NCBI GenBank assembly: GCA_000002435.2
Contig: CM018792.1
DNA: 64,000 nt
Strand: one strand, 5' to 3'
Source of the DNA: Giardia intestinalis
Lineage: Eukaryota
Numbering within the stretch: the stretch's first letter is position 1; each line of letters opens with the position of its first letter. The notes beneath the pieces were generated by a model. It worked only from the letters and a program-made list of their open reading frames with translations. It was not told the origin of the DNA and did not search any database. The position numbers were made by a program, and so were the translations under genes. Below, piece after piece: positions 3,444 through 48,747 of the stretch.

Positions 3444-5186
3444 TCACGCCTTCCCCCTACATATGAACCACCAGCAGAGGAAGCCGACGAGGCCCCCCAC
3501 GACGACGACCACGGCGACGGAGATCCCCGCGATGGCGCCTGTGCTGAGGCCGCTCCTGTTGGTGCCAGAGGACACACACTTACCATTGTCTAGACTGAAG
3601 CCACTGTTGCACTCCCCACATATATTATCCATCACACAGCTCTTACAACCACCCACAGAGCACAGGACACACCCACTGCCGTCCCTGTTGGGCTTCCTAT
3701 CACTGTCACAGGAGGTACACACAGCAGCAGCCATACCACCCTCAGTCAGAGCTGTTGGGGCTGTGCACTGTGAGCAGCCATCCACCCCCACGTATGCCTT
3801 AGCAGTATCACCAGTGCCTGTCAGTGTGCCTAGGGGGTTGCTACAAGCCAACACGGACTGATCAGTGTTGGATGCCCCTGGGACCAGGAAGTACTTATTA
3901 CTTGCTGCCTCTGTGCATATCCCATTACTACTTGATGCCTTGCACATGAAGCTACCTGGTTCTTGACCAACCTTATAACAGCCTCCCATATATAAGAAGT
4001 ACCCTTGAGCACACTGTGTACATGTATGACTGTCACAGGTATTAGTTCCTTTCTTATTATTATCACTAGTACATATACCATCAATAGGGAACTTATTAGC
4101 CTCTCCACAGTAAGAACAATAGTGCTTTGTGGTGCCCTGATCATCTATTATCATGGCATCACAGGCGCCAGAGGTACCACCGCAAGCCGTTGTATCCTCG
4201 CAGGTCTTTGTACATGTGACCCCAGTTGAAGGGGTACCGTTTTGCTTGTAGTTGGGCTTACAGGAGTTGCAGGTCAACGAGCCAGAGAAGGTGCACGTTG
4301 CACATCCATCGATGCCCCCCTGTGCATTATCACAAGCAACGCACTCACCAGTAGGACCACTGCCTTTCATGAAGAATCCAGGCTTGCATTTAGTACACTG
4401 ATTATTGCCAGTTTGAGTGCAGGTGGCACAATTATCACCACAGGCTGCGCATGTAACCGTACCACTACCACTACTGTAGTATCCAGCTAAGCACTCTGAG
4501 CAGGTTGGATTGGCACTTGCTGTCTTCGTGCAAGCCTTACAGCCAGCAATGCCTTTGTTCTTTGGGTCTGATCCGCTGGTATCGCTGCACAAGACACACG
4601 CAGCATCACCATCTGCCTTGAAGTGATCAGCATCCTCGCAGCCAGAGCTTATATCGACGCATGTCGTGGTGCCATCGATGGCCGTCTTCACCTTCTTATT
4701 GTTATTACAGGCGGTGCACTGGGGCTTACTGACAGTCGCATTGTACTTACAGGTAGTACATGCTTGATCTATCGTACTGCATTCCTTGCACGTTCCAGAC
4801 TCTGGGTCTGGATAAACGGTGCTCGTGCATTGATCACTAGTTACGCAAGTCTTATCACCCTTCAAGTACTTCCCCTCTGGACACGATGTGCACTGGGCCG
4901 CCGATGTCTCACAGGTCAGACAAGTACCATCACACTTGCTACATGCCTGAAAGTCCTTGTAGTACCCTGCTTGACAGGCAGTACACGTGGCTGCCCCCTT
5001 ATTACTATCTGACTTGGTGCATGTGGCGCAGTTAGCCACCCCCGTATACCCATCTGCTCCCGTGGCATCATGACAGAGTATGCACTCCCTTCCCTTCTCT
5101 GGTGCTGTAGCAGGGTTCTGGAATACGTACTTGTTATCTGTCTTACAAGCAGTGCACAGTCCATTACTGGCTGCTGTGCATATCAC
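3444..5186 (-). CDS. VSP cassette U1 (family A N-terminal body, C/D-type C-terminal block), 5'-truncated: no signal peptide; ORF opens at GTG
   Basis: 580-aa open frame. ...[16 protein letters not shown] then stop TGA at 3444-3446. Polyadenylation motif ACTCAGGTAGTAAAC at 3430-3444. Begins ICTAASNGLCTAC... with no ATG or signal peptide. Confidence 0.8.
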   Translation of the reverse strand: MICTAASNGLCTACKTDNKYVFQNPATAPEKGRECILCHDATGADGYTGVANCATCTKSDSNKGAATCTACQAGYYKDFQACSKCDGTCLTCETSAAQCTSCPEGKYLKGDKTCVTSDQCTSTVYPDPESGTCKECSTIDQACTTCKYNATVSKPQCTACNNNKKVKTAIDGTTTCVDISSGCEDADHFKADGDAACVLCSDTSGSDPKNKGIAGCKACTKTASANPTCSECLAGYYSSGSGTVTCAACGDNCATCTQTGNNQCTKCKPGFFMKGSGPTGECVACDNAQGGIDGCATCTFSGSLTCNSCKPNYKQNGTPSTGVTCTKTCEDTTACGGTSGACDAMIIDDQGTTKHYCSYCGEANKFPIDGICTSDNNKKGTNTCDSHTCTQCAQGYFLYMGGCYKVGQEPGSFMCKASSSNGICTEAASNKYFLVPGASNTDQSVLACSNPLGTLTGTGDTAKAYVGVDGCSQCTAPTALTEGGMAAAVCTSCDSDRKPNRDGSGCVLCSVGGCKSCVMDNICGECNSGFSLDNGKCVSSGTNRSGLSTGAIAGISVAVVVVVGGLVGFLCWWFICRGKA

Positions 5187-5208
5187 CCACTATCACACAC
5201 TGCACAGC

Positions 5209-5225
5209 ATTCACTACCTAAGTCA
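5209..5225 (-). promoter_or_regulatory. VSP stop codon plus extended polyadenylation signal TGACTTAGGTAGTGAAT (AGTRAAY core); representative of a site repeated after every cassette
   Basis: The motif immediately follows or overlaps the TGA after ...CRGKA in every unit. U1 has ACTCAGGTAGTAAAC at 3430-3444. It matches the conserved Giardia VSP 3' element. Confidence 0.75.
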
Positions 5226-7046
5226 CGCCTTCCCTCTACACACGAACCACCAGCAGAGGAAGCCGACGAGGCCCCCCACGACGGCGACCACAGCCACGGA
5301 GATCCCCGCGATGGCCCCCGCGGAGAGCCCGCTCCTGTTGGCGCCAGAGGACACGCACCTGCCACCCTCTAGTCTGTACCCATCACTGCACTGGCCGCAC
5401 TTGTTCTCCTCGCTGCACCTGACGCACCCGTCGATACTGCAGGCGATGCACTGGGAGCCGTCCAGGCTGGGCCTCTGGTCTTTACTGGTACAGCCCTCGC
5501 ACTTATCGCCTGCTCCACAGTGCGAACATCCACTAACGGTACATGCGAAGCACCCGCTCCCAGCCAGGTTGGGCTTGTTGTTGCCGCTACACGCTGTGCA
5601 CGTGGCGGGGGCCATGCCAGGAGCCTCTAGCTGTGTCGGGGCTGTACATGCTGAGCAGCCATCTACTCCCACATATGCCTTAGCAGTATCACCAGTGCCT
5701 GTCAGTGTGCCTAGGGGGTTGCTACAAGCCAACACGGACTGATCAGTGTTGGATGCCCCTGGGACCAGGAAGTACCTATTGTTGGCCGCCTCTGTGCATA
5801 TCCCACTACTATCTGCTGTCTTGCACATATAGTTGCCAGGCTGAGCTGATACACTATAACAGCCACCCATGTATAGGAAGTACCCCGTAGTACATGATGT
5901 ACAGACATGGTTGTTACAAGTATTACTTTGAGCATCACTATTACATATACCATCGATAGGGAACTTATTGGTCTCTCCACAGTATGAACAATAGTGCTTT
6001 GCATTGCCCTTATCATCTATTATCATGGCATCGCAAGCTCCAGAGGTACCACCACAAGCTGTAGGATCCTCACAAGTCTTGGTACATGTGACAGAGCCAG
6101 GACTGCTATCGCTCTGCTTGCGATAGTTGGGCTTACAATCGGTGCACTTGAAAGTATTGCCATCATTCGAGCAGACACTGCATCCATCGATGCCACCTTT
6201 GGCTGTGTCACTACAAGGGACGCACTCCTTTGTTACACCCTCGGTTTTTAGGAAGTATCCCGGCATGCATTCAGTACATTTGTTAATGTCAGTTTCAGCA
6301 GTACACTTTGCACAGGTATCAGCGCATTTCTTCGTACAAGTATTAGTCTCAAGAAAACGACCCGATAGGCATTCAGAGCACGTTGTTTTGGTACCTGCCT
6401 CCTTGGTGCATTTGTTGCAATCGGCAACACCCTTGTTTGTATTCTCATTATTTCCACTAATATCACCACATAGATAACAGGCTGAGTCATCGTCTGCCTT
6501 GAAGTGATTCTCATCCACACATCCAGAGCTCATATCAACACAGGTTGTCGTTCCATCCAGCTCTGTCTTTACCTTCTTATTACCGCAGTCACTGCATACC
6601 GGCTTCTGTAGCTTTGCATCGTACGTGCAAGCAGTGCACTCTGGTATGCCCCCCTGCTCTGCTGCACCGTTACAGGCTGTGCACTTGCCGGTGCTTGGGT
6701 CGGGGTACTGGTTATTATCGCAGGTTTTTGAGCACGACCCGTCTGACTTCAGATAGAAGCCCGCTTTACAAGATGAACACTGATTCTGACCGGCCCCGGT
6801 ACATGTGGCACAGTTGTCATTACATTTGGTACATGCCTGAGAGTCCATGTAGTATCCATCTCTGCAGGTACTACACGTGGCAGGTCCTGTACTACTGTCT
6901 GACTTGGTACACTGTGCGCAGTTAGCCACCCCCGTATATCCATCTGCTCCATTGATATCGGAGCACAGTATGCACTCCCTTCCCTTCTCTGGTGTTGCAG
7001 CCGGGTTCTTGAACAGGCCGTTAGCTGTATTACACTCAGTGCACAC
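5223..7046 (-). CDS. VSP cassette U2 (family B), 5'-truncated; identical to U5 and U7
   Basis: 607 aa ending [10 protein letters not shown], then TGA and ACTTAGGTAGTGAAT. The ORF 'M' is GTG at 7044-7046. The frame is open upstream only to a TAG in the spacer (W-S-E-I-CTKAEGGVCTEC...). Confidence 0.8.
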   Translation of the reverse strand: MCTECNTANGLFKNPAATPEKGRECILCSDINGADGYTGVANCAQCTKSDSSTGPATCSTCRDGYYMDSQACTKCNDNCATCTGAGQNQCSSCKAGFYLKSDGSCSKTCDNNQYPDPSTGKCTACNGAAEQGGIPECTACTYDAKLQKPVCSDCGNKKVKTELDGTTTCVDMSSGCVDENHFKADDDSACYLCGDISGNNENTNKGVADCNKCTKEAGTKTTCSECLSGRFLETNTCTKKCADTCAKCTAETDINKCTECMPGYFLKTEGVTKECVPCSDTAKGGIDGCSVCSNDGNTFKCTDCKPNYRKQSDSSPGSVTCTKTCEDPTACGGTSGACDAMIIDDKGNAKHYCSYCGETNKFPIDGICNSDAQSNTCNNHVCTSCTTGYFLYMGGCYSVSAQPGNYMCKTADSSGICTEAANNRYFLVPGASNTDQSVLACSNPLGTLTGTGDTAKAYVGVDGCSACTAPTQLEAPGMAPATCTACSGNNKPNLAGSGCFACTVSGCSHCGAGDKCEGCTSKDQRPSLDGSQCIACSIDGCVRCSEENKCGQCSDGYRLEGGRCVSSGANRSGLSAGAIAGISVAVVAVVGGLVGFLCWWFVCRGKA

Positions 7047-7168
7047 TCCTCCCTCAGCCTTTGTACATATCTCACTCCACTATCATACTATCACACGCTA
7101 TCACCCATTATCACCCTCTATCACACATTATCACCCATTATCATCACTCATAGCATTCACTACCTAAG
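7047..7168 (-). repeat. Inter-cassette spacer (122-nt class) made of imperfect GTGATA-rich ~20-nt tandem repeats (minus strand GGGTGATAATGTGTGATAGAGGGTGATAATGGGTGATAGCGTGTGATAGTATGATAGTGGAGTGAG)
   Basis: On the plus strand: tatcacacattatcacccattatcatcac.... It recurs at 10841-10962, 12787-12908, 14604-14725, 16550-16671, 18367-18488, 23903-24024, 31549-31670 and 40871-40992. Shorter 36-, 59- and 67-nt versions occur at the other junctions. Confidence 0.85.
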
Positions 7169-9013
7169 TCACGCCTTCCCTCTACACACGAACCACCAGC
7201 AGAGGAAGCCCACGAGGCCCCCCACGACAGCGACCACAGCCACGGAGATCCCCGCGATGGCCCCCGCGGAGAGCCCGCTCCTGTTGGCGCCAGAGGACAC
7301 GCACCTGCCACCCTCTAGTCTGTACCCATCACTGCACTGGCCGCACTTGTTCTCCTCGCTGCACCTGACGCACCCGTCGATACTGCAGGCGATGCACTGG
7401 GAGCCGTCCAGGCTGGGCCTCTGGTCTTTACTGGTACAGCCCTCGCACTTATCGCCTGCTCCACAGTGCGAACATCCACTAACGGTACATGCGAAGCACC
7501 CGCTCCCAGCCAGGTTGGGCTTGTTGTTGCCGCTACACGCTGTGCACGTGGCGGGGGCCATGCCAGGAGCCTCTAGCTGTGTCGGGGCTGTACATGCTGA
7601 GCAGCCATCTACTCCCACATATGCCTTAGCAGTATCACCAGTGCCTGTCAGTGTGCCTAGGGGGTTGCTACAAGCCAACACGGACTGATCAGTGTTGGAT
7701 GCCCCTGGGACCAGGAAGTACTTATTACTTGCTGCCTCTGTGCATATCCCATTACTACTTGATGCCTTGCACATGAAGCTACCTGGTTCTTGACCAACCT
7801 TATAACAGCCTCCCATATATAAGAAGTACCCTTGAGCACACTGTGTACATGTATGACTGTCACAGGTATTAGTTCCTTTCTTATTATTATCACTAGTACA
7901 TATACCATCAATAGGGAACTTATTAGCCTCTCCACAGTAAGAACAATAGTGCTTTGTGGTGCCCTGATCATCTATTATCATGGCATCACAGGCGCCAGAG
8001 GTACCACCGCAAGCCGTTGTATCCTCGCAGGTCTTTGTACATGTGACCCCAGTTGAAGGGGTACCGTTTTGCTTGTAGTTGGGCTTACAGGAGTTGCAGG
8101 TCAACGAGCCAGAGAAGGTGCACGTTGCACATCCATCGATGCCCCCCTGTGCATTATCACAAGCAACGCACTCACCAGTAGGACCACTGCCTTTCATGAA
8201 GAATCCAGGCTTGCATTTAGTACACTGATTATTGCCAGTTTGAGTGCAGGTGGCACAATTATCACCACAGGCTGCGCATGTAACCGTACCACTACCACTA
8301 CTGTAGTATCCAGCTAAGCACTCTGAGCAGGTTGGATTGGCACTTGCTGTCTTCGTGCAAGCCTTACAGCCAGCAATGCCTTTGTTCTTTGGGTCTGATC
8401 CGCTGGTATCGCTGCACAAGACACACGCAGCATCACCATCTGCCTTGAAGTGATCAGCATCCTCGCAGCCAGAGCTTATATCGACGCATGTCGTGGTGCC
8501 ATCGATGGCCGTCTTCACCTTCTTATTGTTATTACAGGCGGTGCACTGGGGCTTACTGACAGTCGCATTGTACTTACAGGTAGTACATGCTTGATCTATC
8601 GTACTGCATTCCTTGCACGTTCCAGACTCTGGGTCTGGATAAACGGTGCTCGTGCATTGATCACTAGTTACGCAAGTCTTATCACCCTTCAAGTACTTCC
8701 CCTCTGGACACGATGTGCACTGGGCCGCCGATGTCTCACAGGTCAGACAAGTACCATCACACTTGCTACATGCCTGAAAGTCCTTGTAGTACCCTGCTTG
8801 ACAGGCAGTACACGTGGCTGCCCCCTTATTACTATCTGACTTGGTGCATGTGGCGCAGTTAGCCACCCCCGTATACCCATCTGCTCCCGTGGCATCATGA
8901 CAGAGTATGCACTCCCTTCCCTTCTCTGGTGCTGTAGCAGGGTTCTGGAATACGTACTTGTTATCTGTCTTACAAGCAGTGCACAGTCCATTACTGGCTG
9001 CTGTGCATATCAC
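7169..9013 (-). CDS. VSP cassette U3 (A body + B C-terminal block), 5'-truncated
   Basis: 614 aa. Identical to U1 up to ...AKAYVGVDGCS, then switches to the B-type tail ACTAPTQLEAPGMAPATC...SDGYRLEGGRCVSSGANRSG. CRGKA tail and polyA motif present. Confidence 0.8.
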   Translation of the reverse strand: MICTAASNGLCTACKTDNKYVFQNPATAPEKGRECILCHDATGADGYTGVANCATCTKSDSNKGAATCTACQAGYYKDFQACSKCDGTCLTCETSAAQCTSCPEGKYLKGDKTCVTSDQCTSTVYPDPESGTCKECSTIDQACTTCKYNATVSKPQCTACNNNKKVKTAIDGTTTCVDISSGCEDADHFKADGDAACVLCSDTSGSDPKNKGIAGCKACTKTASANPTCSECLAGYYSSGSGTVTCAACGDNCATCTQTGNNQCTKCKPGFFMKGSGPTGECVACDNAQGGIDGCATCTFSGSLTCNSCKPNYKQNGTPSTGVTCTKTCEDTTACGGTSGACDAMIIDDQGTTKHYCSYCGEANKFPIDGICTSDNNKKGTNTCDSHTCTQCAQGYFLYMGGCYKVGQEPGSFMCKASSSNGICTEAASNKYFLVPGASNTDQSVLACSNPLGTLTGTGDTAKAYVGVDGCSACTAPTQLEAPGMAPATCTACSGNNKPNLAGSGCFACTVSGCSHCGAGDKCEGCTSKDQRPSLDGSQCIACSIDGCVRCSEENKCGQCSDGYRLEGGRCVSSGANRSGLSAGAIAGISVAVVAVVGGLVGFLCWWFVCRGKA

Positions 9014-9049
9014 CCACTATCACACACTGCACAGCATTCACTACCTAAG

Positions 9050-10840
9050 TCACGCCTTCCCTCTACACACGAACCACCAGCAGAGGAAGCCGACGAGGCC
9101 CCCCACGACGGCGACCACAGCCACGGAGATCCCCGCGATGGCGCCCGTGGAGAGCCCGCTCCTGTTGGTGCTCGTAGACACACAGGAGGTCCCACTGCTG
9201 TCAGGGCTGTATCCACTGTTGCACACACAGACAGAGTTATCATCAGTGGAGTTGCTGGGGCAGCCATCCACGCATGACTTCCTCCCAGGGCTCACCTTCT
9301 TACCACTACTACACACCTCGCACATGTCATCCCTGTTGCAGTGGGAGCATCCACTAATGGCACATGAGAAGCACCCACTGCCGTCCCTGTTGGGCTTCCT
9401 ATCACTGTCACAGGAGGTACACACAGCAGCAGCCATACCACCCTCAGTCAGAGCTGTTGGGGCTGTGCACTGTGAGCAGCCATCCACCCCCACGTATGCC
9501 TTAGCAGTACCTTGAGGGTCTACTAGTGTGCCTAGGGGGTTGCCACAGGCTAGTACAGACTGATCAGTAGCCTTTGCTTCTGGGACTACGAAGTACCTAT
9601 CATTGGCATTGGGAGTAGTACAGACACCAGCTGTTGTTGCTTCGGAGCACATGAGGCTACCAGGCACCTCTGTTGCTTTATAACAGCCACCCATATAGAG
9701 GAAGTAGTTGTTGGTGCACCGCGTACATACACCATCGGCGCAGGTATTACCTGCAAGTGCATTGGTGCACTTCCCATTAATGGGGCCATAGCCGGCGCCA
9801 ACACACTTTGAACAGTAAGAGAGCATGCTGCCGTCGTTGCCGACCACGATGGCGTCGCAGGCCCCTGCTGTCCCCCCGCATGCAGTCTCATCTTCACAGG
9901 TCTTTGTACACGTATAGTCATCCCCTGCATCTCCATTAAGCTGTTTCTTATAGTTAGGCTTACAGTCAGTACATTTGAATCCACCACTGTTAGAGCATGC
10001 ACTGCACCCATCGCGGCCACCATTTGCTGTATCACTACATGAGATGCACTCACCAGAGGAGCTATCCTTCAAGAAGTACCCTTGCTTGCAGGTCGTGCAT
10101 TGGTCTTTTGTATCCTTAGCACAGGTGGCACAGTTCTCACCACAGGCTGTGCATGTAGCGGTATTACCACTTGCACTATTGTAATATCCATCGAGGCACT
10201 TTGTACATGTAGTTTTAGAGGAGCAGGTATCACAACCTAGAATCCCACCATTTTTAGTATCACCACATGGAACACAAGCTTTTGGAGATTGTTCAAGGAA
10301 GTGCGTATTGCCACTTGTGCACTCTGCCTCCGCAACACACGTCGCTGACCCATCGGGGTTCACCTTAAGAAGCAGGTTTCCTCCACTATTACACCCAGTG
10401 CACACAGGCTTCTGAAGAGTGTCGCTGTATGCACACGTAGCACATTCATTGACACTTGTGTCCGTGCAGGCCTTGCATTGGCCTGTTTTTGGGTCTGCAT
10501 ACTTACCATTGTCACATTGATTAGCATCCACACACTTGTCAGCCTTCAGGAACTTCCCCTCAACGCAGGCGGTACACTGAGTCGGAGTATCAGCTGAGCA
10601 GGCAGAGCAGCCCTCTCCGCACTTCACACATGCACTGTCCTTCTTAACGAACCCATCTTGACAGGCAGTACATGTGACAGGTCCTGCACTCTGTGGTGCC
10701 TGACACTGTGCGCAGTTAGCCACCCCCGTATATCCATCTGCTCCCTTGATATCATGACAGAGGATGCACTCACTACCCTTCTCTGGTGTTGCAGCAGGGT
10801 TCTTGAACAGGCCGTTATCTGCCTTACAAGTAGTGCACAC
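9050..10840 (-). CDS. VSP cassette U4 (family C with long C-terminal variant), 5'-truncated
   Basis: 596 aa beginning CTTCKADNGLFKNPAATPEKGSECILCHDIKGADGY. C-terminal block ...CFSCAISGCSHCNRDDMCEVCSSGKKVSPGRKSCVDGCPSNSTDDNSVCVCNSGYSPDSSGTSCVSTSTNRSG..CRGKA. Confidence 0.8.
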   Translation of the reverse strand: MCTTCKADNGLFKNPAATPEKGSECILCHDIKGADGYTGVANCAQCQAPQSAGPVTCTACQDGFVKKDSACVKCGEGCSACSADTPTQCTACVEGKFLKADKCVDANQCDNGKYADPKTGQCKACTDTSVNECATCAYSDTLQKPVCTGCNSGGNLLLKVNPDGSATCVAEAECTSGNTHFLEQSPKACVPCGDTKNGGILGCDTCSSKTTCTKCLDGYYNSASGNTATCTACGENCATCAKDTKDQCTTCKQGYFLKDSSSGECISCSDTANGGRDGCSACSNSGGFKCTDCKPNYKKQLNGDAGDDYTCTKTCEDETACGGTAGACDAIVVGNDGSMLSYCSKCVGAGYGPINGKCTNALAGNTCADGVCTRCTNNYFLYMGGCYKATEVPGSLMCSEATTAGVCTTPNANDRYFVVPEAKATDQSVLACGNPLGTLVDPQGTAKAYVGVDGCSQCTAPTALTEGGMAAAVCTSCDSDRKPNRDGSGCFSCAISGCSHCNRDDMCEVCSSGKKVSPGRKSCVDGCPSNSTDDNSVCVCNSGYSPDSSGTSCVSTSTNRSGLSTGAIAGISVAVVAVVGGLVGFLCWWFVCRGKA

Positions 10841-10962
10841 TCCTCCCTCAGCCTTTGTACATATCTCACTCCACTATCATACTATCACACACTATCACCC
10901 ATTATCACCCTCTATCACACATTATCACCCATTATCATCACTCATAGCATTCACTACCTAAG

Positions 10963-12786
10963 TCACGCCTTCCCTCTACACACGAACCACCAGCAGAGGA
11001 AGCCCACGAGGCCCCCCACGACAGCGACCACAGCCACGGAGATCCCCGCGATGGCCCCCGCGGAGAGCCCGCTCCTGTTGGCGCCAGAGGACACGCACCT
11101 GCCACCCTCTAGTCTGTACCCATCACTGCACTGGCCGCACTTGTTCTCCTCGCTGCACCTGACGCACCCGTCGATACTGCAGGCGATGCACTGGGAGCCG
11201 TCCAGGCTGGGCCTCTGGTCTTTACTGGTACAGCCCTCGCACTTATCGCCTGCTCCACAGTGCGAACATCCACTAACGGTACATGCGAAGCACCCGCTCC
11301 CAGCCAGGTTGGGCTTGTTGTTGCCGCTACACGCTGTGCACGTGGCGGGGGCCATGCCAGGAGCCTCTAGCTGTGTCGGGGCTGTACATGCTGAGCAGCC
11401 ATCTACTCCCACATATGCCTTAGCAGTATCACCAGTGCCTGTCAGTGTGCCTAGGGGGTTGCTACAAGCCAACACGGACTGATCAGTGTTGGATGCCCCT
11501 GGGACCAGGAAGTACCTATTGTTGGCCGCCTCTGTGCATATCCCACTACTATCTGCTGTCTTGCACATATAGTTGCCAGGCTGAGCTGATACACTATAAC
11601 AGCCACCCATGTATAGGAAGTACCCCGTAGTACATGATGTACAGACATGGTTGTTACAAGTATTACTTTGAGCATCACTATTACATATACCATCGATAGG
11701 GAACTTATTGGTCTCTCCACAGTATGAACAATAGTGCTTTGCATTGCCCTTATCATCTATTATCATGGCATCGCAAGCTCCAGAGGTACCACCACAAGCT
11801 GTAGGATCCTCACAAGTCTTGGTACATGTGACAGAGCCAGGACTGCTATCGCTCTGCTTGCGATAGTTGGGCTTACAATCGGTGCACTTGAAAGTATTGC
11901 CATCATTCGAGCAGACACTGCATCCATCGATGCCACCTTTGGCTGTGTCACTACAAGGGACGCACTCCTTTGTTACACCCTCGGTTTTTAGGAAGTATCC
12001 CGGCATGCATTCAGTACATTTGTTAATGTCAGTTTCAGCAGTACACTTTGCACAGGTATCAGCGCATTTCTTCGTACAAGTATTAGTCTCAAGAAAACGA
12101 CCCGATAGGCATTCAGAGCACGTTGTTTTGGTACCTGCCTCCTTGGTGCATTTGTTGCAATCGGCAACACCCTTGTTTGTATTCTCATTATTTCCACTAA
12201 TATCACCACATAGATAACAGGCTGAGTCATCGTCTGCCTTGAAGTGATTCTCATCCACACATCCAGAGCTCATATCAACACAGGTTGTCGTTCCATCCAG
12301 CTCTGTCTTTACCTTCTTATTACCGCAGTCACTGCATACCGGCTTCTGTAGCTTTGCATCGTACGTGCAAGCAGTGCACTCTGGTATGCCCCCCTGCTCT
12401 GCTGCACCGTTACAGGCTGTGCACTTGCCGGTGCTTGGGTCGGGGTACTGGTTATTATCGCAGGTTTTTGAGCACGACCCGTCTGACTTCAGATAGAAGC
12501 CCGCTTTACAAGATGAACACTGATTCTGACCGGCCCCGGTACATGTGGCACAGTTGTCATTACATTTGGTACATGCCTGAGAGTCCATGTAGTATCCATC
12601 TCTGCAGGTACTACACGTGGCAGGTCCTGTACTACTGTCTGACTTGGTACACTGTGCGCAGTTAGCCACCCCCGTATATCCATCTGCTCCATTGATATCG
12701 GAGCACAGTATGCACTCCCTTCCCTTCTCTGGTGTTGCAGCCGGGTTCTTGAACAGGCCGTTAGCTGTATTACACTCAGTGCACAC
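10963..12786 (-). CDS. VSP cassette U5 (family B), identical to U2 and U7
   Basis: The 607-aa translation is identical to U2 and U7. CRGKA tail present. Confidence 0.8.
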   Translation of the reverse strand: MCTECNTANGLFKNPAATPEKGRECILCSDINGADGYTGVANCAQCTKSDSSTGPATCSTCRDGYYMDSQACTKCNDNCATCTGAGQNQCSSCKAGFYLKSDGSCSKTCDNNQYPDPSTGKCTACNGAAEQGGIPECTACTYDAKLQKPVCSDCGNKKVKTELDGTTTCVDMSSGCVDENHFKADDDSACYLCGDISGNNENTNKGVADCNKCTKEAGTKTTCSECLSGRFLETNTCTKKCADTCAKCTAETDINKCTECMPGYFLKTEGVTKECVPCSDTAKGGIDGCSVCSNDGNTFKCTDCKPNYRKQSDSSPGSVTCTKTCEDPTACGGTSGACDAMIIDDKGNAKHYCSYCGETNKFPIDGICNSDAQSNTCNNHVCTSCTTGYFLYMGGCYSVSAQPGNYMCKTADSSGICTEAANNRYFLVPGASNTDQSVLACSNPLGTLTGTGDTAKAYVGVDGCSACTAPTQLEAPGMAPATCTACSGNNKPNLAGSGCFACTVSGCSHCGAGDKCEGCTSKDQRPSLDGSQCIACSIDGCVRCSEENKCGQCSDGYRLEGGRCVSSGANRSGLSAGAIAGISVAVVAVVGGLVGFLCWWFVCRGKA

Positions 12787-12908
12787 TCCTCCCTCAGCCT
12801 TTGTACATATCTCACTCCACTATCATACTATCACACACTATCACCCATTATCACCCTCTATCACACATTATCACCCATTATCATCACTCATAGCATTCAC
12901 TACCTAAG

Positions 12909-14603: not shown

Positions 14604-14725
14604 TCCTCCCTCAGCCTTTGTACATATCTCACTCCACTATCATACTATCACACGCTATCACCCATTATCACCCTCTATCACACATTATCACCCATTATCA
14701 TCACTCATAGCATTCACTACCTAAG

Positions 14726-16549: not shown

Positions 16550-16671
16550 TCCTCCCTCAGCCTTTGTACATATCTCACTCCACTATCATACTATCACACA
16601 CTATCACCCATTATCACCCTCTATCACACATTATCACCCATTATCATCACTCATAGCATTCACTACCTAAG

Positions 16672-18366: not shown

Positions 18367-18488
18367 TCCTCCCTCAGCCTTTGTACATATCTCACTCCAC
18401 TATCATACTATCACACACTATCACCCATTATCACCCTCTATCACACATTATCACCCATTATCATCACTCATAGCATTCACTACCTAAG

Positions 18489-20333: not shown

Positions 20334-20392
20334 ACTCCACTATCACCCTCTATCACACACTATCACACACTGTACAGCATTCACTACCTAAG

Positions 20393-33428: not shown

Positions 33429-33495
33429 ACTCCACTATCACACTATCACCCTCTATTACCCATTATCACACATTGTATAGCATTCACTACCTAAG

Positions 33496-35229: not shown

Positions 35230-35265
35230 CCACTATCACACATTGTACAGCATTCACTACCCAAG

Positions 35266-37032: not shown

Positions 37033-37099
37033 ACTCCACTATCACACATTATCACACTATCACCTTCTATCACACATTGTACAGCATTCACTACCTAAG

Positions 37100-39070
37100 T
37101 CACGCCTTCCCCCTGCACACGAACCACCAGCAGAGGAAGCCCACGAGGCCCCCCACGACAGCGATGACAGCCACGGAGATCCCTGCTATGGCACCAGTAC
37201 TGAGGCCGCTTCTGTTGCCCCCGCTGGGCTTGGTGGACACGCACGCCTCACCCTCCAGCCTGTAGTCGTCCCCACACTGGCCGCACTTGTTCTCCTCGCT
37301 GCACCTGACGCACCCGTCGATACTGCAGGCGATGCACTGGGAGCCGTCCAGGCTGGGCCTCTGGTCTTTACTGGTACAGCCCTCGCACTTATCGCCTGCT
37401 CCACAGTGCGAACATCCACTAACGGTACATGCGAAGCACCCGCTCCCAGCCAGGTTGGGCTTGTTGTTGCCGCTACACGCTGTGCACGTGGCGGGGGCCA
37501 TGCCAGGAGCCTCTAGCTGTGTCGGGGCTGTACATGCTGAGCAGCCATCTACTCCCACATATGCCTTAGCAGTATCACCAGTGCCTGTCAGTGTGCCTAG
37601 GGGGTTGCTACAAGCCAACACGGACTGATCAGTGTTGGATGCCCCTGGGACCAGGAAGTACTTATTACTTGCTGCCTCTGTGCATATCCCATTACTACTT
37701 GATGCCTTGCACATGAAGCTACCTGGTTCTTGACCAACCTTATAACAGCCTCCCATATATAAGAAGTACCCTTGAGCACACTGTGTACATGTATGACTGT
37801 CACAGGTATTAGTTCCTTTCTTATTATTATCACTAGTACATATACCATCAATAGGGAACTTATTAGCCTCTCCACAGTAAGAACAATAGTGCTTTGTGGT
37901 GCCCTGATCATCTATTATCATGGCATCACAGGCGCCAGAGGTACCACCGCAAGCCGTTGTATCCTCGCAGGTCTTTGTACATGTGACCCCAGTTGAAGGG
38001 GTACCGTTTTGCTTGTAGTTGGGCTTACAGGAGTTGCAGGTCAACGAGCCAGAGAAGGTGCACGTTGCACATCCATCGATGCCCCCCTGTGCATTATCAC
38101 AAGCAACGCACTCACCAGTAGGACCATTGCCTTTCATGAAGAACCCAGGCTTGCATGTATCACACTTATCATTGCCAGTTTGAGTGCAGGTGGCACAGTT
38201 AGCACCTGGACAAGCGGTGCATGTAACCGTACCACTACCACTACTGTAGTATCCATCGAGGCACTCCGAGCAGGTCGGCGGTGTCGCCGAGTCCTTGGTA
38301 CACTTCTTACACCCGGCAATGCCCTGGTAATTTGGATCGGCTCCAGCTGAAACGGTACTGCATAAAACACATGTTTTGTCCTCCTTCATAAATAGGGCCT
38401 CGTCAGCGCCTTTACATCCAGCGTAGTCTTTTGTCACGCACGTCGAGGTCCCATCAAGGGCCGTCCTGGGGATCTTACTGTTATCACAAGCTGTGCACTT
38501 CGGCTTCTTGGTAGTCGAATCAACCTCACACTGGGTACATGCTTGATCTATCGTGTTGCAAGGAAGGCACTTCCCCGACTCCGGGTCAGCATAAGTGTTT
38601 CCAGTGCATCCATTATTATTCACGCATGACTTGTCAGTCTTCAGGTACTTCCCCTCTGGACACGATGTGCAATGATTCGGACCACTTCCATCGCAGGTCA
38701 GACAGGACGGATCACACTTCTCACATGCATCACCCTTCTTAATGTATCCATCTTGGCAGACAGTGCATGTGGCCGGTCCGCTAGTGCCCGTGTGGGAGCA
38801 TTCTGAGCATCCAGCGACTCCCATGACCCCGTTTCTATCTATAGTATCGGAGCACAAGATGCACTCACTACCCTTCTCTGATGGTGTAACTGGGTTCTTG
38901 AACAGGCCGTTAGCTGTATTACAAGCAGTGCACAGTCCTCCCTCAGCCTTTGTGCATATCTCACTGCCAGGGTGTGCATCCTTGTTGTAGCACCCGCCCA
39001 TGAAGAGGAGTCTCATACTATCACTATCACCCCCACACCACATAGCACTATCACTATCACTGTACAGCAT
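37100..39070 (-). CDS. VSP cassette U19 (E start + F block + A block + B-variant tail); E-type extended 5' boundary
   Basis: 656-aa ORF. The first residues LYSDSDS... are spacer read-through. Successive blocks match U12, U18, U1 and U15. Confidence 0.75.
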   Translation of the reverse strand: MLYSDSDSAMWCGGDSDSMRLLFMGGCYNKDAHPGSEICTKAEGGLCTACNTANGLFKNPVTPSEKGSECILCSDTIDRNGVMGVAGCSECSHTGTSGPATCTVCQDGYIKKGDACEKCDPSCLTCDGSGPNHCTSCPEGKYLKTDKSCVNNNGCTGNTYADPESGKCLPCNTIDQACTQCEVDSTTKKPKCTACDNSKIPRTALDGTSTCVTKDYAGCKGADEALFMKEDKTCVLCSTVSAGADPNYQGIAGCKKCTKDSATPPTCSECLDGYYSSGSGTVTCTACPGANCATCTQTGNDKCDTCKPGFFMKGNGPTGECVACDNAQGGIDGCATCTFSGSLTCNSCKPNYKQNGTPSTGVTCTKTCEDTTACGGTSGACDAMIIDDQGTTKHYCSYCGEANKFPIDGICTSDNNKKGTNTCDSHTCTQCAQGYFLYMGGCYKVGQEPGSFMCKASSSNGICTEAASNKYFLVPGASNTDQSVLACSNPLGTLTGTGDTAKAYVGVDGCSACTAPTQLEAPGMAPATCTACSGNNKPNLAGSGCFACTVSGCSHCGAGDKCEGCTSKDQRPSLDGSQCIACSIDGCVRCSEENKCGQCGDDYRLEGEACVSTKPSGGNRSGLSTGAIAGISVAVIAVVGGLVGFLCWWFVCRGKA

Positions 39071-39082
39071 TCACTACCTAAG

Positions 39083-40870
39083 TCACGCCTTCCCCCTGCA
39101 CAGGAACCACCAGCAGAGGAAGCCCACGAGGCCCCCCACGACAGCGACCACGGCGACGGCAATGCCCGCGATGGCGCCCGTGGAGAGCCCGCTCCTGTTG
39201 GTGCTCGTAGACACACAGGAGGTCCCACTGCTGTCAGGGCTGTATCCACTGTTGCACACACAGACAGAGTTATCATCAGTGGAGTTGCTGGGGCAGCCAT
39301 CCACGCATGACTTCCTCCCAGGGCTCACCTTCTTACCACTACTACACACCTCGCACATGTCATCCCTGTTGCAGTGGGAGCATCCACTAATGGCACATGA
39401 GAAGCACCCACTGCCGTCCCTGTTGGGCTTCCTATCACTGTCACAGGAGGTACACACAGCAGCAGCCATACCACCCTCAGTCAGAGCTGTTGGGGCTGTG
39501 CACTGTGAGCAGCCATCCACCCCCACGTATGCCTTAGCAGTATCACCAGTGCCTGTCAGTGTGCCTAGGGGGTTGCTACAAGCCAACACGGACTGATCAG
39601 TGTTGGATGCCCCTGGGACCAGGAAGTACTTATTACTTGCTGCCTCTGTGCATATCCCATTACTACTTGATGCCTTGCACATGAAGCTACCTGGTTCTTG
39701 ACCAACCTTATAACAGCCTCCCATATATAAGAAGTACCCTTGAGCACACTGTGTACATGTATGACTGTTACAAGTATTACCTTTCTTATCAGTAGCACAG
39801 ATGCCATCAATTGGTACCTTAGTACTCTCCCCACAGTATGAGCAATAGTGAAGCTCCTTTCCATCAGCACCGATCACTATGGCATCACAAGAGCCAGCTG
39901 TCCCCCCGCATGCAGTCTCATCTTCACAGGTCTTTGTACACGTATAGTCATCCCCTGCATCTCCATTAAGCTGTTTCTTATAGTTAGGCTTACAGTCAGT
40001 ACATTTGAATCCACCACTGTTAGAGCATGCACTGCACCCATCGCGGCCACCATTTGCTGTATCACTACATGAGATGCACTCACCAGAGGAGCTATCCTTC
40101 AAGAAGTACCCTTGCTTGCAGGTCGTGCATTGGTCTTTTGTATCCTTAGCACAGGTGGCACAGTTCTCACCACAGGCTGTGCATGTAGCGGTATTACCAC
40201 TTGCACTATTGTAATATCCATCGAGGCACTTTGTACATGTAGTTTTAGAGGAGCAGGTATCACAACCTAGAATCCCACCATTTTTAGTATCACCACATGG
40301 AACACAAGCTTTTGGAGATTGTTCAAGGAAGTGCGTATTGCCACTTGTGCACTCTGCCTCCGCAACACACGTCGCTGACCCATCGGGGTTCACCTTAAGA
40401 AGCAGGTTTCCTCCACTATTACACCCAGTGCACACAGGCTTCTGAAGAGTGTCGCTGTATGCACACGTAGCACATTCATTGACACTTGTGTCCGTGCAGG
40501 CCTTGCATTGGCCTGTTTTTGGGTCTGCATACTTACCATTGTCACATTGATTAGCATCCACACACTTGTCAGCCTTCAGGAACTTCCCCTCAACGCAGGC
40601 GGTACACTGAGTCGGAGTATCAGCTGAGCAGGCAGAGCAGCCCTCTCCGCACTTCACACATGCACTGTCCTTCTTAACGAACCCATCTTGACAGGCAGTA
40701 CATGTGACAGGTCCTGCACTCTGTGGTGCCTGACACTGTGCGCAGTTAGCCACCCCCGTATATCCATCTGCTCCCTTGATATCATGACAGAGGATGCACT
40801 CACTACCCTTCTCTGGTGTTGCAGCAGGGTTCTTGAACAGGCCGTTATCTGCCTTACAAGTAGTGCACAC
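39083..40870 (-). CDS. VSP cassette U20 (C N-terminal half + A middle + long C-type tail)
   Basis: 595 aa. C-type to ...TCTKTCEDETACGGTAGSCDAIVIGADGKELHYCSYCGESTKVPIDGICATDKKGNTCNSHTCTQCAQGYFLYMGGCYKVGQEPGSFMCKASSSNGICTEAASNKYF (A-type block), then the U4-type tail. Confidence 0.8.
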   Translation of the reverse strand: MCTTCKADNGLFKNPAATPEKGSECILCHDIKGADGYTGVANCAQCQAPQSAGPVTCTACQDGFVKKDSACVKCGEGCSACSADTPTQCTACVEGKFLKADKCVDANQCDNGKYADPKTGQCKACTDTSVNECATCAYSDTLQKPVCTGCNSGGNLLLKVNPDGSATCVAEAECTSGNTHFLEQSPKACVPCGDTKNGGILGCDTCSSKTTCTKCLDGYYNSASGNTATCTACGENCATCAKDTKDQCTTCKQGYFLKDSSSGECISCSDTANGGRDGCSACSNSGGFKCTDCKPNYKKQLNGDAGDDYTCTKTCEDETACGGTAGSCDAIVIGADGKELHYCSYCGESTKVPIDGICATDKKGNTCNSHTCTQCAQGYFLYMGGCYKVGQEPGSFMCKASSSNGICTEAASNKYFLVPGASNTDQSVLACSNPLGTLTGTGDTAKAYVGVDGCSQCTAPTALTEGGMAAAVCTSCDSDRKPNRDGSGCFSCAISGCSHCNRDDMCEVCSSGKKVSPGRKSCVDGCPSNSTDDNSVCVCNSGYSPDSSGTSCVSTSTNRSGLSTGAIAGIAVAVVAVVGGLVGFLCWWFLCRGKA

Positions 40871-40992
40871 TCCTCCCTCAGCCTTTGTACATATCTCACT
40901 CCACTATCATACTATCACACACTATCACCCATTATCACCCTCTATCACACATTATCACCCATTATCATCACTCATAGCATTCACTACCTAAG

Positions 40993-42750
40993 TCACGCCT
41001 TCCCTCTACACACGAACCACCAGCAGAGGAAGCCCACGAGGCCCCCCACGACAGCGACCACAGCCACGGAGATCCCCGCGATGGCCCCCGCGGAGAGCCC
41101 GCTCCTGTTGGCGCCAGAGGACACACACTTACCATTGTCTAGACTGAAGCCACTGTTGCACTCCCCACACACACCGTCCACCACACAGCTCTTGCAGTTG
41201 GTGTCAGAGCATACTACACACCCACTGCCATCCTTGTTGGGCTTTTTATCACTGTCACAGGAGGTGCACACAGCGGGGGTCATACCACCATCAGACAGAC
41301 CTGCTGGGGCTGTACATGCTGAACAGCCATCTATTCCCACATATGCCTTAGCAGCACTATCAGTGCCTGTTGATGTGCCTAGGGGGTTACTACATGCCAA
41401 CACGGACTGCTGAGCATTGGTTGCCCCCGGAACCAGGAAGTATCTATTGTTGGCTGCTTCTGTACAGACACCCTCCTTACTTGATGTCTTGCACATGAGG
41501 CTACCTGGTTCTGTATTAACCTTGTAACAACCATTCATATACATAAAGTACCCTGTAGTACAAGACTCACAGACATGGTTGTTACAAGTATTACTTTGAG
41601 CCTCACTAGCACAGAGACCATCTATAGGATACTTACTGCTATCCCCACAATAGGAACAGTAATGATGCTCTACTCCATCATTGTCGATCACTATAGCATC
41701 GCAGGCCCCTGCTGTCCCACCACACGCAGTATCATCTTCACAGGCCTTTGTACATGTGACCCCAGTTGAAGGTTCTCCACTGGGTCTGTAGTTCACCTTG
41801 CATTTTGTGCACTTAAATGTGCCACTATTTGTGCACTCGGCACACCCCTCGATGCCACCTTTGGTTGTGTCACTACATGAGATGCACTCACCAGAGGAGC
41901 TATCCTTCAAGAAGTACCCTTGCTTACATGTCAGGCACTTACTCGGATCTTCCTTCTTGGAGCATGTCGCACAGCCTGGAGCGCACGGATCGCATGTAAA
42001 GCCCCCGCTTCTGTTCTCGATGTATCCCTCCAGGCATTCTGTGCAGGCTGGATTGGCACTCGCTGTCTTCGTGCAAGCCTTACAGCCAGCAATGCCTTTG
42101 TTCTTTTGTTCTGAATCCGACGCTGCGGGATCACTGCACAAACGACACACGTTGTCCTCGGTCATAAAGAGACCGTTATCAGCTCCTTGACACCCGGCGT
42201 AGTTCTTCGCCACGCAGGTCGAGGTTCCATCAAGGGTCGTCCTGGGGATCTTGGTTCCATCATCGCCACACTTACTGCACTTCGGCTTCTTGGTAGTCGA
42301 ATCAACTTCACACTGGGTACAGCTGGGATCTATCGTACTACATTCCTTGCACGTTCTGGTAGCTTCGTCAGTATAGTGTGTGCCTGTGCATGAGCCAGCT
42401 ACGACACAATCAGTCCCCTTCAGGTACTTCCCCGCTACGCAGAGGGTGCATGCATTCTGACCGGTTCCACTACACGTCTCGCAGTCGGTATGACATTTGA
42501 CACATGCACCGTTACCATCTTTATAGTACCCTGCTTGACACTCTGTACACGTGGCAGCTCCTGGACTACCACTTGGTTCCGTGCACTTGAGGCAGTTAGC
42601 CACTCCTTTGTTCTCATTCGCTCCCGTGGCATCATGGCACAGGATGCACTCCCCACCAGGGGTCACCTTCTCTGCCCTGTTCTGGAATATGTACTGACTA
42701 TCTGTATTACAAGCAGTGCACAGTCCATTACTGGCCTTTGTACATATCAC
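40993..42750 (-). CDS. VSP cassette U21 (family D), identical to U16
   Basis: 585 aa identical to U16. CRGKA tail. The 67-nt spacer to U22 is identical to the U16/U17 spacer. Confidence 0.8.
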   Translation of the reverse strand: MICTKASNGLCTACNTDSQYIFQNRAEKVTPGGECILCHDATGANENKGVANCLKCTEPSGSPGAATCTECQAGYYKDGNGACVKCHTDCETCSGTGQNACTLCVAGKYLKGTDCVVAGSCTGTHYTDEATRTCKECSTIDPSCTQCEVDSTTKKPKCSKCGDDGTKIPRTTLDGTSTCVAKNYAGCQGADNGLFMTEDNVCRLCSDPAASDSEQKNKGIAGCKACTKTASANPACTECLEGYIENRSGGFTCDPCAPGCATCSKKEDPSKCLTCKQGYFLKDSSSGECISCSDTTKGGIEGCAECTNSGTFKCTKCKVNYRPSGEPSTGVTCTKACEDDTACGGTAGACDAIVIDNDGVEHHYCSYCGDSSKYPIDGLCASEAQSNTCNNHVCESCTTGYFMYMNGCYKVNTEPGSLMCKTSSKEGVCTEAANNRYFLVPGATNAQQSVLACSNPLGTSTGTDSAAKAYVGIDGCSACTAPAGLSDGGMTPAVCTSCDSDKKPNKDGSGCVVCSDTNCKSCVVDGVCGECNSGFSLDNGKCVSSGANRSGLSAGAIAGISVAVVAVVGGLVGFLCWWFVCRGKA

Positions 42751-42817
42751 ACTCCACTATCACACTATCACCCTCTATTACCCATTATCACACATTGTAT
42801 AGCATTCACTACCTAAG

Positions 42818-44887
42818 TCACGCCTTCCCCCTGCACACGAACCACCAGCAGAGGAAGCCCACGAGGCCCCCCACGACAGCGACCACAGCCACGGAGATCC
42901 CCGCGATGGCCCCCGCGGAGAGCCCGCTCCTGTTGGCGCCAGAGGACACACACTTACCATTGTCTAGACTGAAGCCACTGTTGCACTCCCCACATATATT
43001 ATCCATCACACAGCTCTTACAACCACCCACAGAGCACAGGACACACCCACTGCCGTCCCTGTTGGGCTTCTTACTACTGTCACAGGAGGTACAGACAGCG
43101 GGGGCCATACCACCATCAGACAGAGCTGCTGGGGCTGTACACTGGGAGCAGCCCTCTACTCCCACATATGCCTTAGCAGTATCACCAGTGCCTGTCAGTG
43201 TGCCTAGGGGGTTGCTACAAGCCAACACAGACTGATCAGTGTTGGATGCACCAGGCACTACGAAGTACCTATTGTTGGCTGCTTCTGTGCAGATCCCAGT
43301 ATTACCTGCTGTCTTGCACATGAAGCTACCAGGAGCCTTCTGAGTGCTATAACAGCCACCCATGTATAGGAAGTAGTTGTTGGTGCACTGTGTACATACA
43401 CCATTAGCACAAGTATTCCCAGCCTTTTGAGCCTCACTAGCACAGAGACCATCTATAGGAGCTTGTGAACTATCTCCACAATAGGAACAGTAGTGCTTTG
43501 TGGTGCCCTGATCATCTATTACGATGGCATCACAAGAGCCAGCTGTCCCCCCACAAGCCGTGGGGTCCTCGCAGGTCTTCTCTGTGCATGTATAGTTGTC
43601 TGAGGTTCCAGCGGGCTTCCTGTTAGGCTTGCACTTTGTGCACTTGAGAGGTCCTGTAGACTCCTTTGTGCACTCGGCACACCCATCGATGCCCCCCTGT
43701 GCATTATCACAAGCAACGCACTCACCAGTAGGACCATTGCCTTTCATGAAGAATCCAGGCTTGCATTTAGTGCACTTATCATTGCCAGCTTGAGTGCAGG
43801 TGGCACAGTTGGCACCACAGGCTTCACATGTAACCGTACCACCATTTCCACTATTGTAATATCCGTCGAGGCACTCCGAGCAGGTCGGCTTGGCTCCGTT
43901 CTTCTTACATGTTTTACACCCAGGCGTCCCTTTATTAGCTTCTAAACTTTCACTATCATCACTACACAATATGCACTTGGTGCTACCATCATTTAGAAAG
44001 TGGGATCCGTCAACGTTACTTGTTGCGCACCCATTTGCATCGACACAGGTTGTCGTGCCATCGATGGCCGTCTTCACCATCTTCTGACCACCGCAGTTAG
44101 TGCACTTCGGCTTCTTGGTAGTCGAATCAACCTCACACTGGGTACATGCTTGATCTATCGTGTTGCAAGGAAGGCACTTCCCCGACTCCGGGTCAGCATA
44201 AGTGTTTCCAGTGCATCCATTATTATTCACGCATGACTTGTCACCCTTCAAGTACTTCCCCTCTGGACACGATGTGCACTGGGCCGCCGATGTCTCACAG
44301 GTCAGACAAGTACCATCACACTTGCTACATGCCTGAAAGTCCTTGTAGTACCCTGCTTGACAGGCAGTACACGTGGCTGCCCCCTTATTACTGTCTGACT
44401 TGGTACACTGTGCGCAGTTAGCCACCCCCGTATATCCATCTGCTCCATTGATATCGGAGCACAGTATGCACTCACTACCCTTCTCTGGTGTTGCAGCAGG
44501 GTTCTTGAACAGGCCGTTAGCTGTCTTACACTCAGTGCACAGTCCTCCCTCAGCCTTTGTGCATATCTCGCTGCCGGGCCCGTCGGTTGTCTTGTAGCAC
44601 CCGCCCATGAAGAGGAAGTACCCGTCGCCGCACTTCTCGCAGGTTGCTGTCATCTTGTCAAGGGCAGCCCCGCCCGCTTTGGTGCACCCGGCTGCCGCGG
44701 CCTGGGGGGAGCCGAAGGGTCGGCAGAAGCCGTCGACCGGGACGCCCCCGGTCTTGCACTCGGTGCAGATCTCGGCTGACCCGACCGTCTCGCACTTGCC
44801 GGTCTGGCAGGTCGCGGCGTGGTCTCCGTCTGGCTGGCAGGCCGCCATGAGCGCGCTCGCTACGAACAGGGGTATCAGTTGGAACAT
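42818..44887 (-). CDS. Complete variant-specific surface protein (VSP) gene: signal peptide, unique N-terminal ~180 aa, mosaic Cys-rich body, TM, CRGKA
   Basis: ATG at 44885-44887 (minus strand) gives MFQLIPLFVASALMAACQPDGDHAATCQ.... This is 690 aa to CRGKA, with stop at 42818. The ORF-track extension to 45076 (752 aa) is GC-rich stop-free flank with no start or signal context. It is the only unit in the array with a signal peptide and a body upstream of ...SEICTKAEGGLCTEC. Confidence 0.8.
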   Translation of the reverse strand: MFQLIPLFVASALMAACQPDGDHAATCQTGKCETVGSAEICTECKTGGVPVDGFCRPFGSPQAAAAGCTKAGGAALDKMTATCEKCGDGYFLFMGGCYKTTDGPGSEICTKAEGGLCTECKTANGLFKNPAATPEKGSECILCSDINGADGYTGVANCAQCTKSDSNKGAATCTACQAGYYKDFQACSKCDGTCLTCETSAAQCTSCPEGKYLKGDKSCVNNNGCTGNTYADPESGKCLPCNTIDQACTQCEVDSTTKKPKCTNCGGQKMVKTAIDGTTTCVDANGCATSNVDGSHFLNDGSTKCILCSDDSESLEANKGTPGCKTCKKNGAKPTCSECLDGYYNSGNGGTVTCEACGANCATCTQAGNDKCTKCKPGFFMKGNGPTGECVACDNAQGGIDGCAECTKESTGPLKCTKCKPNRKPAGTSDNYTCTEKTCEDPTACGGTAGSCDAIVIDDQGTTKHYCSYCGDSSQAPIDGLCASEAQKAGNTCANGVCTQCTNNYFLYMGGCYSTQKAPGSFMCKTAGNTGICTEAANNRYFVVPGASNTDQSVLACSNPLGTLTGTGDTAKAYVGVEGCSQCTAPAALSDGGMAPAVCTSCDSSKKPNRDGSGCVLCSVGGCKSCVMDNICGECNSGFSLDNGKCVSSGANRSGLSAGAIAGISVAVVAVVGGLVGFLCWWFVCRGKA

Positions 44888-48494: not shown

Positions 48495-48747
48495 TGTTTT
48501 ATTGGGCCAATGCCACTATGCAATCTACTCTGCTACTGATGTGATATCGGAATACAGATCCTGCAAACGCTCATAATGCACAGTACTGAGTGTTAGTAAA
48601 TTTTGTTCATCAGATCACGAAGAAGCAAGATCTTGTCGTAGAAAAGATGCTAGTATGCAGGTCTGCTAAATGAATAGCAGAATAGCAGGTTCATTGGACG
48701 CCTTCTCACAAGTAGACATCTGTCCGCCGGCAAAAAATTGAGATTTC

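Follow-up and report, generated by a model that had tools for sequence, protein, structure and literature searches.

A linear array of variant-specific surface protein units in Giardia intestinalis WB: one complete gene, 21 truncated cassettes and signs of exchange among them

[quoted passage not shown] The units are numbered in their 5' to 3' order, from U01 (the complete gene) to U22. We propose, with a rough probability of 0.6, that a truncated unit was amplified in tandem, that unequal exchange and gene conversion, with the participation of the head gene, keep reshaping the copies, and that the array would serve as an evolutionary reservoir of VSP sequence and not as a switch.

A regular expression for the conserved tail codons found exactly 22 copies of the CRGKA tail followed by TGA, and the tail stop marks the lower coordinate of each unit interval given below (42818 in U01, 40993 in U02 and so on to 3444 in U22). 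The spacing of the tails, and with it the unit length, is 1770-1983 nt. A polyA signal of the form AGTRAAY (AGTGAAT or AGTAAAC) lies 8 nt past the stop in 22/22 units, and each unit contains 26-29 CXXC motifs. All top protein matches are Giardia VSPs with the Pfam domain PF03302. Every feature by which VSP linear arrays or psiVSP arrays are recognized is found here, namely short spacers, a first member with an initiator and an upstream region, headless downstream members, and the polyA signal. The original prediction for this stretch, namely one complete VSP gene and 21 headless cassettes, each unit having its own transmembrane (TM)-CRGKA tail, stop codon and polyA signal, is thus confirmed, and the pattern goes far beyond what chance would give.

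The complete gene U01 (42818..44887, minus strand) codes for a protein of 689 amino acids (aa) with a signal peptide, 28 CXXC motifs and the TM-CRGKA tail. It is identical over 689/689 residues to XP_037902103.1 / KAE8304460.1, an annotated VSP of G. intestinalis ATCC 50803 / WB clone C6. Among the 22 units, only U01 has the VSP initiator context PyAatgTT at its ATG (cTAATGTTcc, at 44887), and only U01 has a hydrophobic, signal-peptide-like N-terminus (MFQLIPLFVASALMAAC), as called by our own heuristic (an in-frame Met and a hydrophobic stretch) and not by SignalP. The same heuristic scan of U02-U22 found neither PyAatgTT nor an in-frame Met before a hydrophobic, signal-like stretch, in support of the earlier claim that promoter, ATG in context and signal peptide are all missing from the units downstream of U01. 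The head-only part of U01 comprises nt 1-312 (aa 1-104; 44576..44887, minus strand) and is carried by no cassette, apart from a stretch of 25 nt that is present again in U04 and U11. The N-terminus missing from the cassettes, which had been put at about 180 aa, is in fact 104 aa (312 nt) long, with the GSEICTK motif at U01 residue 105.

All 21 cassettes share one DNA junction (...GTGATAG|TGGAGTGAGATATG...), which corresponds to U01 residue 105. The prediction that every unit starts at the same internal point therefore holds for the DNA, but not for the encoded peptide: the sequence WSEICTKAEGG is present in 10/21 cassettes only, and the rest begin with WSVICTKASNG, WSVICTAASDG, WVICTAASNG or WSMICTAAKDG. 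From the stop of the CRGKA tail to the next open frame, the spacers between the units measure 12-89 nt and consist of CTTAGGTAGTGAATGC and GTGATAG-like 10-nt repeats, which supply TAG stops. Their lengths fall into discrete classes of 12, 33, 53, 61 and 89 nt that show no agreement with the cassette families described below. The 10-nt repeats (GGGTGATAGT / GTGTGATAGA; given by Tandem Repeats Finder on the plus strand as ACTATCACCC), found for example at 40904-40992, 31582-31670 and 18400-18488 (minus strand), are closely similar to the first bases of the cassettes (GTGAGATATG / GTGATATG) and look like slipped copies of the junction.

Eighteen of the 21 cassettes are open from the junction to CRGKA, over 575-656 codons. 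In the other three, U09, U10 and U12, 1-nt deletions put the CRGKA tails out of frame with the body of the unit, a further correction to the original prediction. The deletion sites are short homopolymers no more than ~60 nt past the GGM..AVCT motif (~28110-28170, 26300-26360 and 22430-22500, minus strand). One deletion is common to U09 and U10, and U10 carries two in all. These deletions could be inherited lesions or systematic long-read errors. U04 and U11 reach ~40 nt further 5' than the other cassettes (LFMGGCY), and their stop-free spacers give ATG-initiated open reading frames (ORFs) of 656 and 653 aa, respectively, which start with MLYSDSDSAMWCGG (MLYSDSDS...LFMGGCY... in U04) and code for no signal peptide. 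The absence of a start in context, as originally claimed, thus holds for all cassettes, but U04 and U11 do possess an ATG. In both ORFs (37100-39070 and 24025-25986, minus strand; peptide start MLYSDSDSAMWCGGDSDSMRLLFMGGCY), this ATG overlaps the polyA signal of the preceding unit. We rejected the view of the cassettes as independently translated genes: no initiator or signal peptide is present in any of them, and the read-through ORFs of U04 and U11 begin with a non-hydrophobic stretch.

The units fall into about six sequence families (all intervals on the minus strand). Family A comprises U02 (40993..42817), U07 (31671..33495), which is identical to U02 over its full length, and U13 (20393..22209). 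Family B is the largest, with U03 (39083..40992), the frameshifted U12 (22210..24024), U15 (16672..18488), U17 (12909..14725) and U19 (9050..10962). U08 (29716..31670), U16 (14726..16671), U18 (10963..12908; identical to U16) and U21 (5223..7168) form family C, and U06 (33496..35265), U14 (18489..20392), U20 (7169..9049) and U22 (3444..5222) form family D. U22 is the last cassette, with its AGTAAAC 8 nt past the stop and unique sequence thereafter. The two remaining families are pairs: the frameshifted U09 (27868..29715) and U10 (25999..27867) in family E, and U04 (37100..39082) and U11 (24025..25998) in family F. U01 and U05 (35266..37099), which have 461 exact nt in common, stand near family F. 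Identity is 89-100% within families, except in the looser family F (U04/U11 85%), and 63-80% between families.

These families are not clean lineages, as 81-100% of every unit can be covered with a small number of exact tracts found in other units. The head gene is included in this pattern. Its nt 347-2070 are tiled by exact tracts of five cassettes: nt 347-499 (153 nt) are identical to U08, nt 496-647 to U06/14/20/22, nt 645-1733 (1089 nt) to U11, nt 1729-1799 to U09, and nt 1818-2070, i.e., the 3' 253 nt, to the 3' end of U06. U01 and U11 are 88% identical overall, and a perfect run of 1089 nt has a probability of ~1e-61 per start position if divergence is assumed to be uniform. Past codon ~116, U01 is thus assembled from cassette-type sequence. 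More generally, the tracts of 0.15-2.2 kb with 100% identity between units that are otherwise 63-88% identical show that exchange has been recent.

The repeats also extend across whole units. For this search, an exact-match method replaced a blastn self-comparison (99% identity), which under-reported long repeats. Unit borders are crossed by exact repeats as long as 2209 nt, the copies of which stand two, three, five or more units apart. For example, the 3' 253 nt of U01 together with U02 and the start of U03 equal the 3' end of U06 together with U07 and the start of U08, and U07 lies within the 2209-nt exact repeat, at an offset of 9322. In U15-U19 there is a two-unit higher-order repeat of 3763 nt, formed by U17 with U16 and U18. 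Exact repeats of 100 nt or longer make up 96% of the array, which holds only 15,250 distinct 100-mers, or about eight unit-equivalents. We interpret this pattern as the footprints of unequal crossing-over and of shorter, gene-conversion-like patches, some of them very recent. In the one assembly analysed, the exchange is array-wide and reciprocal-looking, and it links cassette with cassette as much as cassette with head gene.

Protein-level comparison was based on 12 in-frame units. The ratio of non-synonymous to synonymous substitution rates (dN/dS, Nei-Gojobori) was 0.25-0.48 in all 66 pairs, including those with a dS of ~1 and above, and 88/92 Cys columns were invariant in the alignment of the same units. 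These low ratios and the near-invariant Cys columns show that the cassette types diverged under protein-level constraint, a pattern that long neutral decay does not fit. Such constraint fits sequence that is periodically tested in an expressed gene, and it also fits sequence that has recently been imported from expressed genes.

On the basis of the anatomy, the common junction, the mosaic of exact tracts, the duplications of several units and the protein-level constraint, all shown above, we infer the following order of events, direction of transfer and adaptive benefit. Since the point of truncation is the same in 21/21 copies, all of them would go back to one founding unit, already truncated, which would have been amplified in tandem by unequal crossing-over. 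The units would then have been reshuffled continually by homologous recombination, both as short-patch gene conversion and as multi-unit unequal exchange, with likely anchors in two conserved places, the 5' junction and the TM-CRGKA-polyA block at the 3' end. The head gene would join in this exchange in such a way that its promoter, signal peptide and first 104 codons stay fixed, while the remaining ectodomain becomes a chimera of cassette-type tracts. The array would thus represent a reservoir of ~15 kb of distinct VSP sequence, from which new alleles of the head gene, and possibly of other VSPs, may be assembled over evolutionary or long clonal time, and it would not be the device that switches which VSP is displayed. 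In a stronger version, mitotic recombination in the array, by unequal sister-chromatid exchange or short-patch conversion, would rewrite the ectodomain of the head VSP so fast that it has an effect in the course of an infection or of a culture history, and would thus provide a second, recombinational layer of antigenic diversification on top of expression switching. This version seems to us rather improbable.

Some considerations weigh against the reservoir interpretation. One static assembly cannot reveal in which direction or how fast sequence is transferred. Functional VSPs that were recently copied in could have brought the low dN/dS with them, without any selection on the array, and the three frameshifted cassettes fit decay as well as they fit use as donors. 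Furthermore, the count and order of the near-identical units rest on the long-read assembly, short-read contigs ending before the array.

The original prediction had gone further than a reservoir and had read the locus as a programmed donor archive, in which U01 is the expression site and receives segments from silent cassettes by conversion at a switching-relevant frequency, as in vlsE/vls or pilE/pilS. Cassettes without promoter or signal peptide, a fixed 5' constant region in U01, a head gene that is an exact patchwork of five cassette tracts, and cassettes that keep their open frames and Cys scaffold are all to be expected of such an archive, and its recombinational part is borne out by the exact tiling of U01. 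Its expression-site and switching part is not. In WB, 133-136 VSP genes are complete, and every one is annotated with a signal peptide (PMC7000408; bioRxiv 10.1101/2022.03.07.483299), so that U01 is one of many and not a unique expression site; our protein search likewise returned many other full-length WB VSPs on other chromosomes. In the switches that have been studied, the genes vspA6 and vspC5 kept their chromosomal location through antigenic variation, and VSP positions are conserved between WB-C6 and Be-2 (PMC11169602). The mosaicism is array-wide and reciprocal-looking and is not centred on U01. An older database entry for the head gene (P0001, 677 aa) shows only 2 residue differences from the current U01; together with the conserved VSP positions, this argues against rapid turnover without excluding it. 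In addition, fragments of the 2007 annotation match U17 and U22 at 100%. No canonical G-quadruplex (G4) of the kind that initiates recombination at pilE was found on either strand of 3300-47000. A programmed archive is thus highly improbable in our judgement. The opposite view, that the cassettes are an inert by-product, i.e., dead gene fragments made and homogenised by unequal crossing-over with no role as donors or regulators, agrees with the lack of a start codon in context, promoter or signal peptide, with the three frameshifted units, with the 96% of exact repeats and the roughly eight unit-equivalents of unique sequence, and with the higher-order repeats, which are typical of unequal exchange; the psiVSPs of G. 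muris, moreover, are essentially untranscribed (PMC7641422). Against this view stand the dN/dS of 0.25-0.48 even between families at a dS of ~1, the almost invariant Cys columns, the long open frames in 18/21 units and the cassette-identical tracts in the functional head gene. We consider this view unlikely, though it deserves to be kept in mind.

Two further readings concern the transcription and the assembly of the array. If the cassettes are transcribed at a low level, be it as read-through from U01, pervasively or in antisense, their VSP-homologous RNA might feed the Dicer/RdRP/Argonaute pathway that limits VSP expression. The old WB annotation had 178 vsps that start with ATG, and strand-specific RNA-seq detected transcripts for every one of them, the 108 without initiator included; the median was 19 fragments per kilobase per million (FPKM) for the initiator-less genes vs 42 for the initiator-positive ones (PMC3610916). 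RNAs from VSP-homologous repeats have been proposed as sources of small interfering RNA (PMC2817412). The GenBank entry 'VSP S6', which equals U13 residues 198-587, may be of relevance here. On the other hand, a polyA signal 8 nt past every stop speaks against long read-through, reads cannot be assigned to single units in sequence that is 96% repetitive, and the G. muris arrays are silent (PMC7641422). An RNA source is on balance quite improbable. Finally, the sequence types could be real while the unit number (22) or order has been inflated or scrambled by near-identical repeats of 1.8-1.9 kb. The exact repeats of up to 2.2 kb and the high repeat content would favour such an artefact, as would the 1-nt deletions at short homopolymers, the breaking of short-read assemblies upstream of the array, and the 2007 assembly, which held fragments only. 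However, older Sanger-era entries match U01, U13, U17 and U22 at 99.7-100%, and because of these matches several unit types can be taken as independently confirmed. Unit lengths and spacer types also vary in a non-periodic order, and arrays of 10 or more units were inferred earlier from Sanger and optical-map data (PMC2996952). A partial assembly artefact would therefore come as a great surprise.

Both the architecture of this locus and the idea of donor cassettes were already known, and the locus belongs to a known kind within the best-studied isolate's own reference genome. Adam et al. 2010 (PMC2996952) reported that more than half of the WB vsp genes are in 'linear arrays', with spacers averaging 60 bp (from overlap to 241 bp), and that the first member often has a long upstream region and the initiator, whereas downstream members do not. 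In the same study, GENECONV gave evidence for recombination among vsps, and the hypothesis that array copies act as recombination donors was stated, next to the alternative phrase 'remains of discarded vsp genes'. The earlier assertion that a donor archive would be a new mechanism is thus not tenable. psiVSP arrays have since been annotated in the WB reference by Xu et al. 2020 (PMC7000408), and Rodriguez-Walker et al. 2022 regarded incomplete VSPs as a sequence reservoir and described an extended polyA signal specific to VSPs and psiVSPs. All the defining features of the G. intestinalis linear arrays (PMC2996952) match those found here, including long stretches of 100% identity between members, and nothing categorical differs; the present array has 22 units, whereas the longest resolvable in 2010 had 10. 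To our knowledge, the exact-tract patchwork of the head gene has not previously been spelled out for this locus.

Comparable arrays are present in G. muris, whose genome contains psiVSP arrays of 5-23 units with phylogenetic evidence of recombination or gene conversion with intact VSPs, for which a role as reservoir was proposed and whose repertoire was likened to those of Pneumocystis and T. brucei, in which silent arrays feed expression sites (PMC7641422); linear arrays in G. intestinalis are cited there as already known. The two species share tandem VSP copies without signal peptide and signs of exchange between these and intact VSPs. However, the G. muris arrays are almost all telomere-adjacent and have the tail GCRGK, whereas here the tail is CRGKA and there are ordinary genes on both sides, with RSP3 and thymidine kinase on one and a Cys-rich membrane protein on the other. 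With vlsE/vls of Borrelia and pilE/pilS of Neisseria, the locus has in common an expressible gene with a constant 5' part, promoter-less 5'-truncated silent cassettes beside it, and a mosaic expressed gene. Those systems are built on a single dedicated expression locus, one-way transfer, stable donors and recombination-dependent switching, in contrast to the ~135 independently expressible VSPs of Giardia, where switching is ascribed to control by RNA interference and epigenetic mechanisms (PMC8957917). Initiation at pilE also needs a G4 element, of which there is no counterpart here, and the Giardia cassettes are mosaics of each other as well. The variant surface glycoprotein (VSG) arrays of T. 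brucei are similar as a large arrayed archive of incomplete antigen genes able to give segments to functional genes. They differ in that VSGs are expressed from telomeric sites and recombination is the main route of switching, whereas the Giardia array would be at most a candidate for feeding an expression site during infection.

If transfer from cassettes to the head gene were frequent, the antigen repertoire would extend far beyond the ~135 intact VSP genes, and chimeric antigens would need to be considered in serotyping and in the design of vaccines based on VSPs. As a clean and fully resolved case of a known architecture, with an unusually legible record of recent exchange, the array is well suited to measuring how often VSP arrays recombine in mitosis, a rate on which the reservoir hypothesis depends. 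What we add is the explicit map of exact tracts in the head gene and the cassettes; the reservoir hypothesis itself is 15 years old and can be found in the standard genome papers.

The GenBank entry that matches U13 (AAN52101.1, 'variant-specific surface protein S6', 390 aa) is 100% identical to residues 198-587 of this cassette (20393-21565, minus strand). It begins at an internal Met although U13 has an earlier in-frame Met; if it came from cDNA, cassette-type sequence has been seen as RNA. Text searches on the origin of the GenBank entries 'VSP S6' and 'VSP S7' produced spurious matches only. Four older WB entries from other loci (P0002, P0008, P0042 and P0096) start with the same read-through peptide as U04 and U11 (MLYSDSDS..AMWCGGDS..FMGGCY), and none of them matches a unit of this array at 90% identity or above. 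Because of this common start, the truncation junction and the spacer must occur in other arrays of the same genome too, and the design is not peculiar to this locus. The locus of P0003, the closest non-identical full-length relative (ENA contig L001), was rejected as syntenic, as its similarity is confined to VSP-coding sequence (75-88%) and there is no homology in the flanks. When the genomic context of U01 and P0132 was looked up by exact protein, no record came back.

Upstream of U01 is a region of ~2.8 kb without recognisable gene (44888..47675, minus strand), in which no ORF has a family match. Its proximal block (~44888-46100, ~1.2 kb) has 63% G+C. A look-up with the flanking RSP3 gene returned only short-read contigs. 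These come from three independent runs (L002-L004), are 99.8-99.99% identical to the window and all stop at 46101-46259, at the start of the GC-rich block, with 1.2-1.4 kb still to go to the U01 ATG. Since the contigs of all three runs end at its border, this suggests that the block is itself repeated elsewhere in the genome. Beyond it, the flank at 47676-62848 contains radial spoke protein 3 (RSP3, 48748-49668), a weak rhomboid-like match (56415-57275), thymidine kinase (57306-58484) and a WD40/Sof1-like protein (61298-62848); the matching contig L002 also has a call for a V-ATPase F subunit. Because these are ordinary single-copy genes, the array is chromosome-internal and not telomere-adjacent within the window. 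Scans of the window for tRNAs and Rfam families gave no match.

The last cassette is directly followed, in the same orientation, by a gene for a Cys-rich membrane protein of 817 aa (302-2755, minus strand), with 11.5% Cys and 24 CXXC motifs. This protein combines a signal peptide and a VSP-like TM helix (VGFLCWWF) with the tail FRGRRIDASPSTMTLISSKSM in place of CRGKA, and its Pfam VSP match has a value of 2e-35. It looks like an HCMP/CRMP-type relative of the VSPs. On the plus strand, ORFs of 200-274 aa run antisense to the 3' ends of the cassettes and the spacers and recur with the units (for example at 10658-11482, 14421-15245, 18184-19008 and 23720-24544); they are probably a by-product of codon composition.

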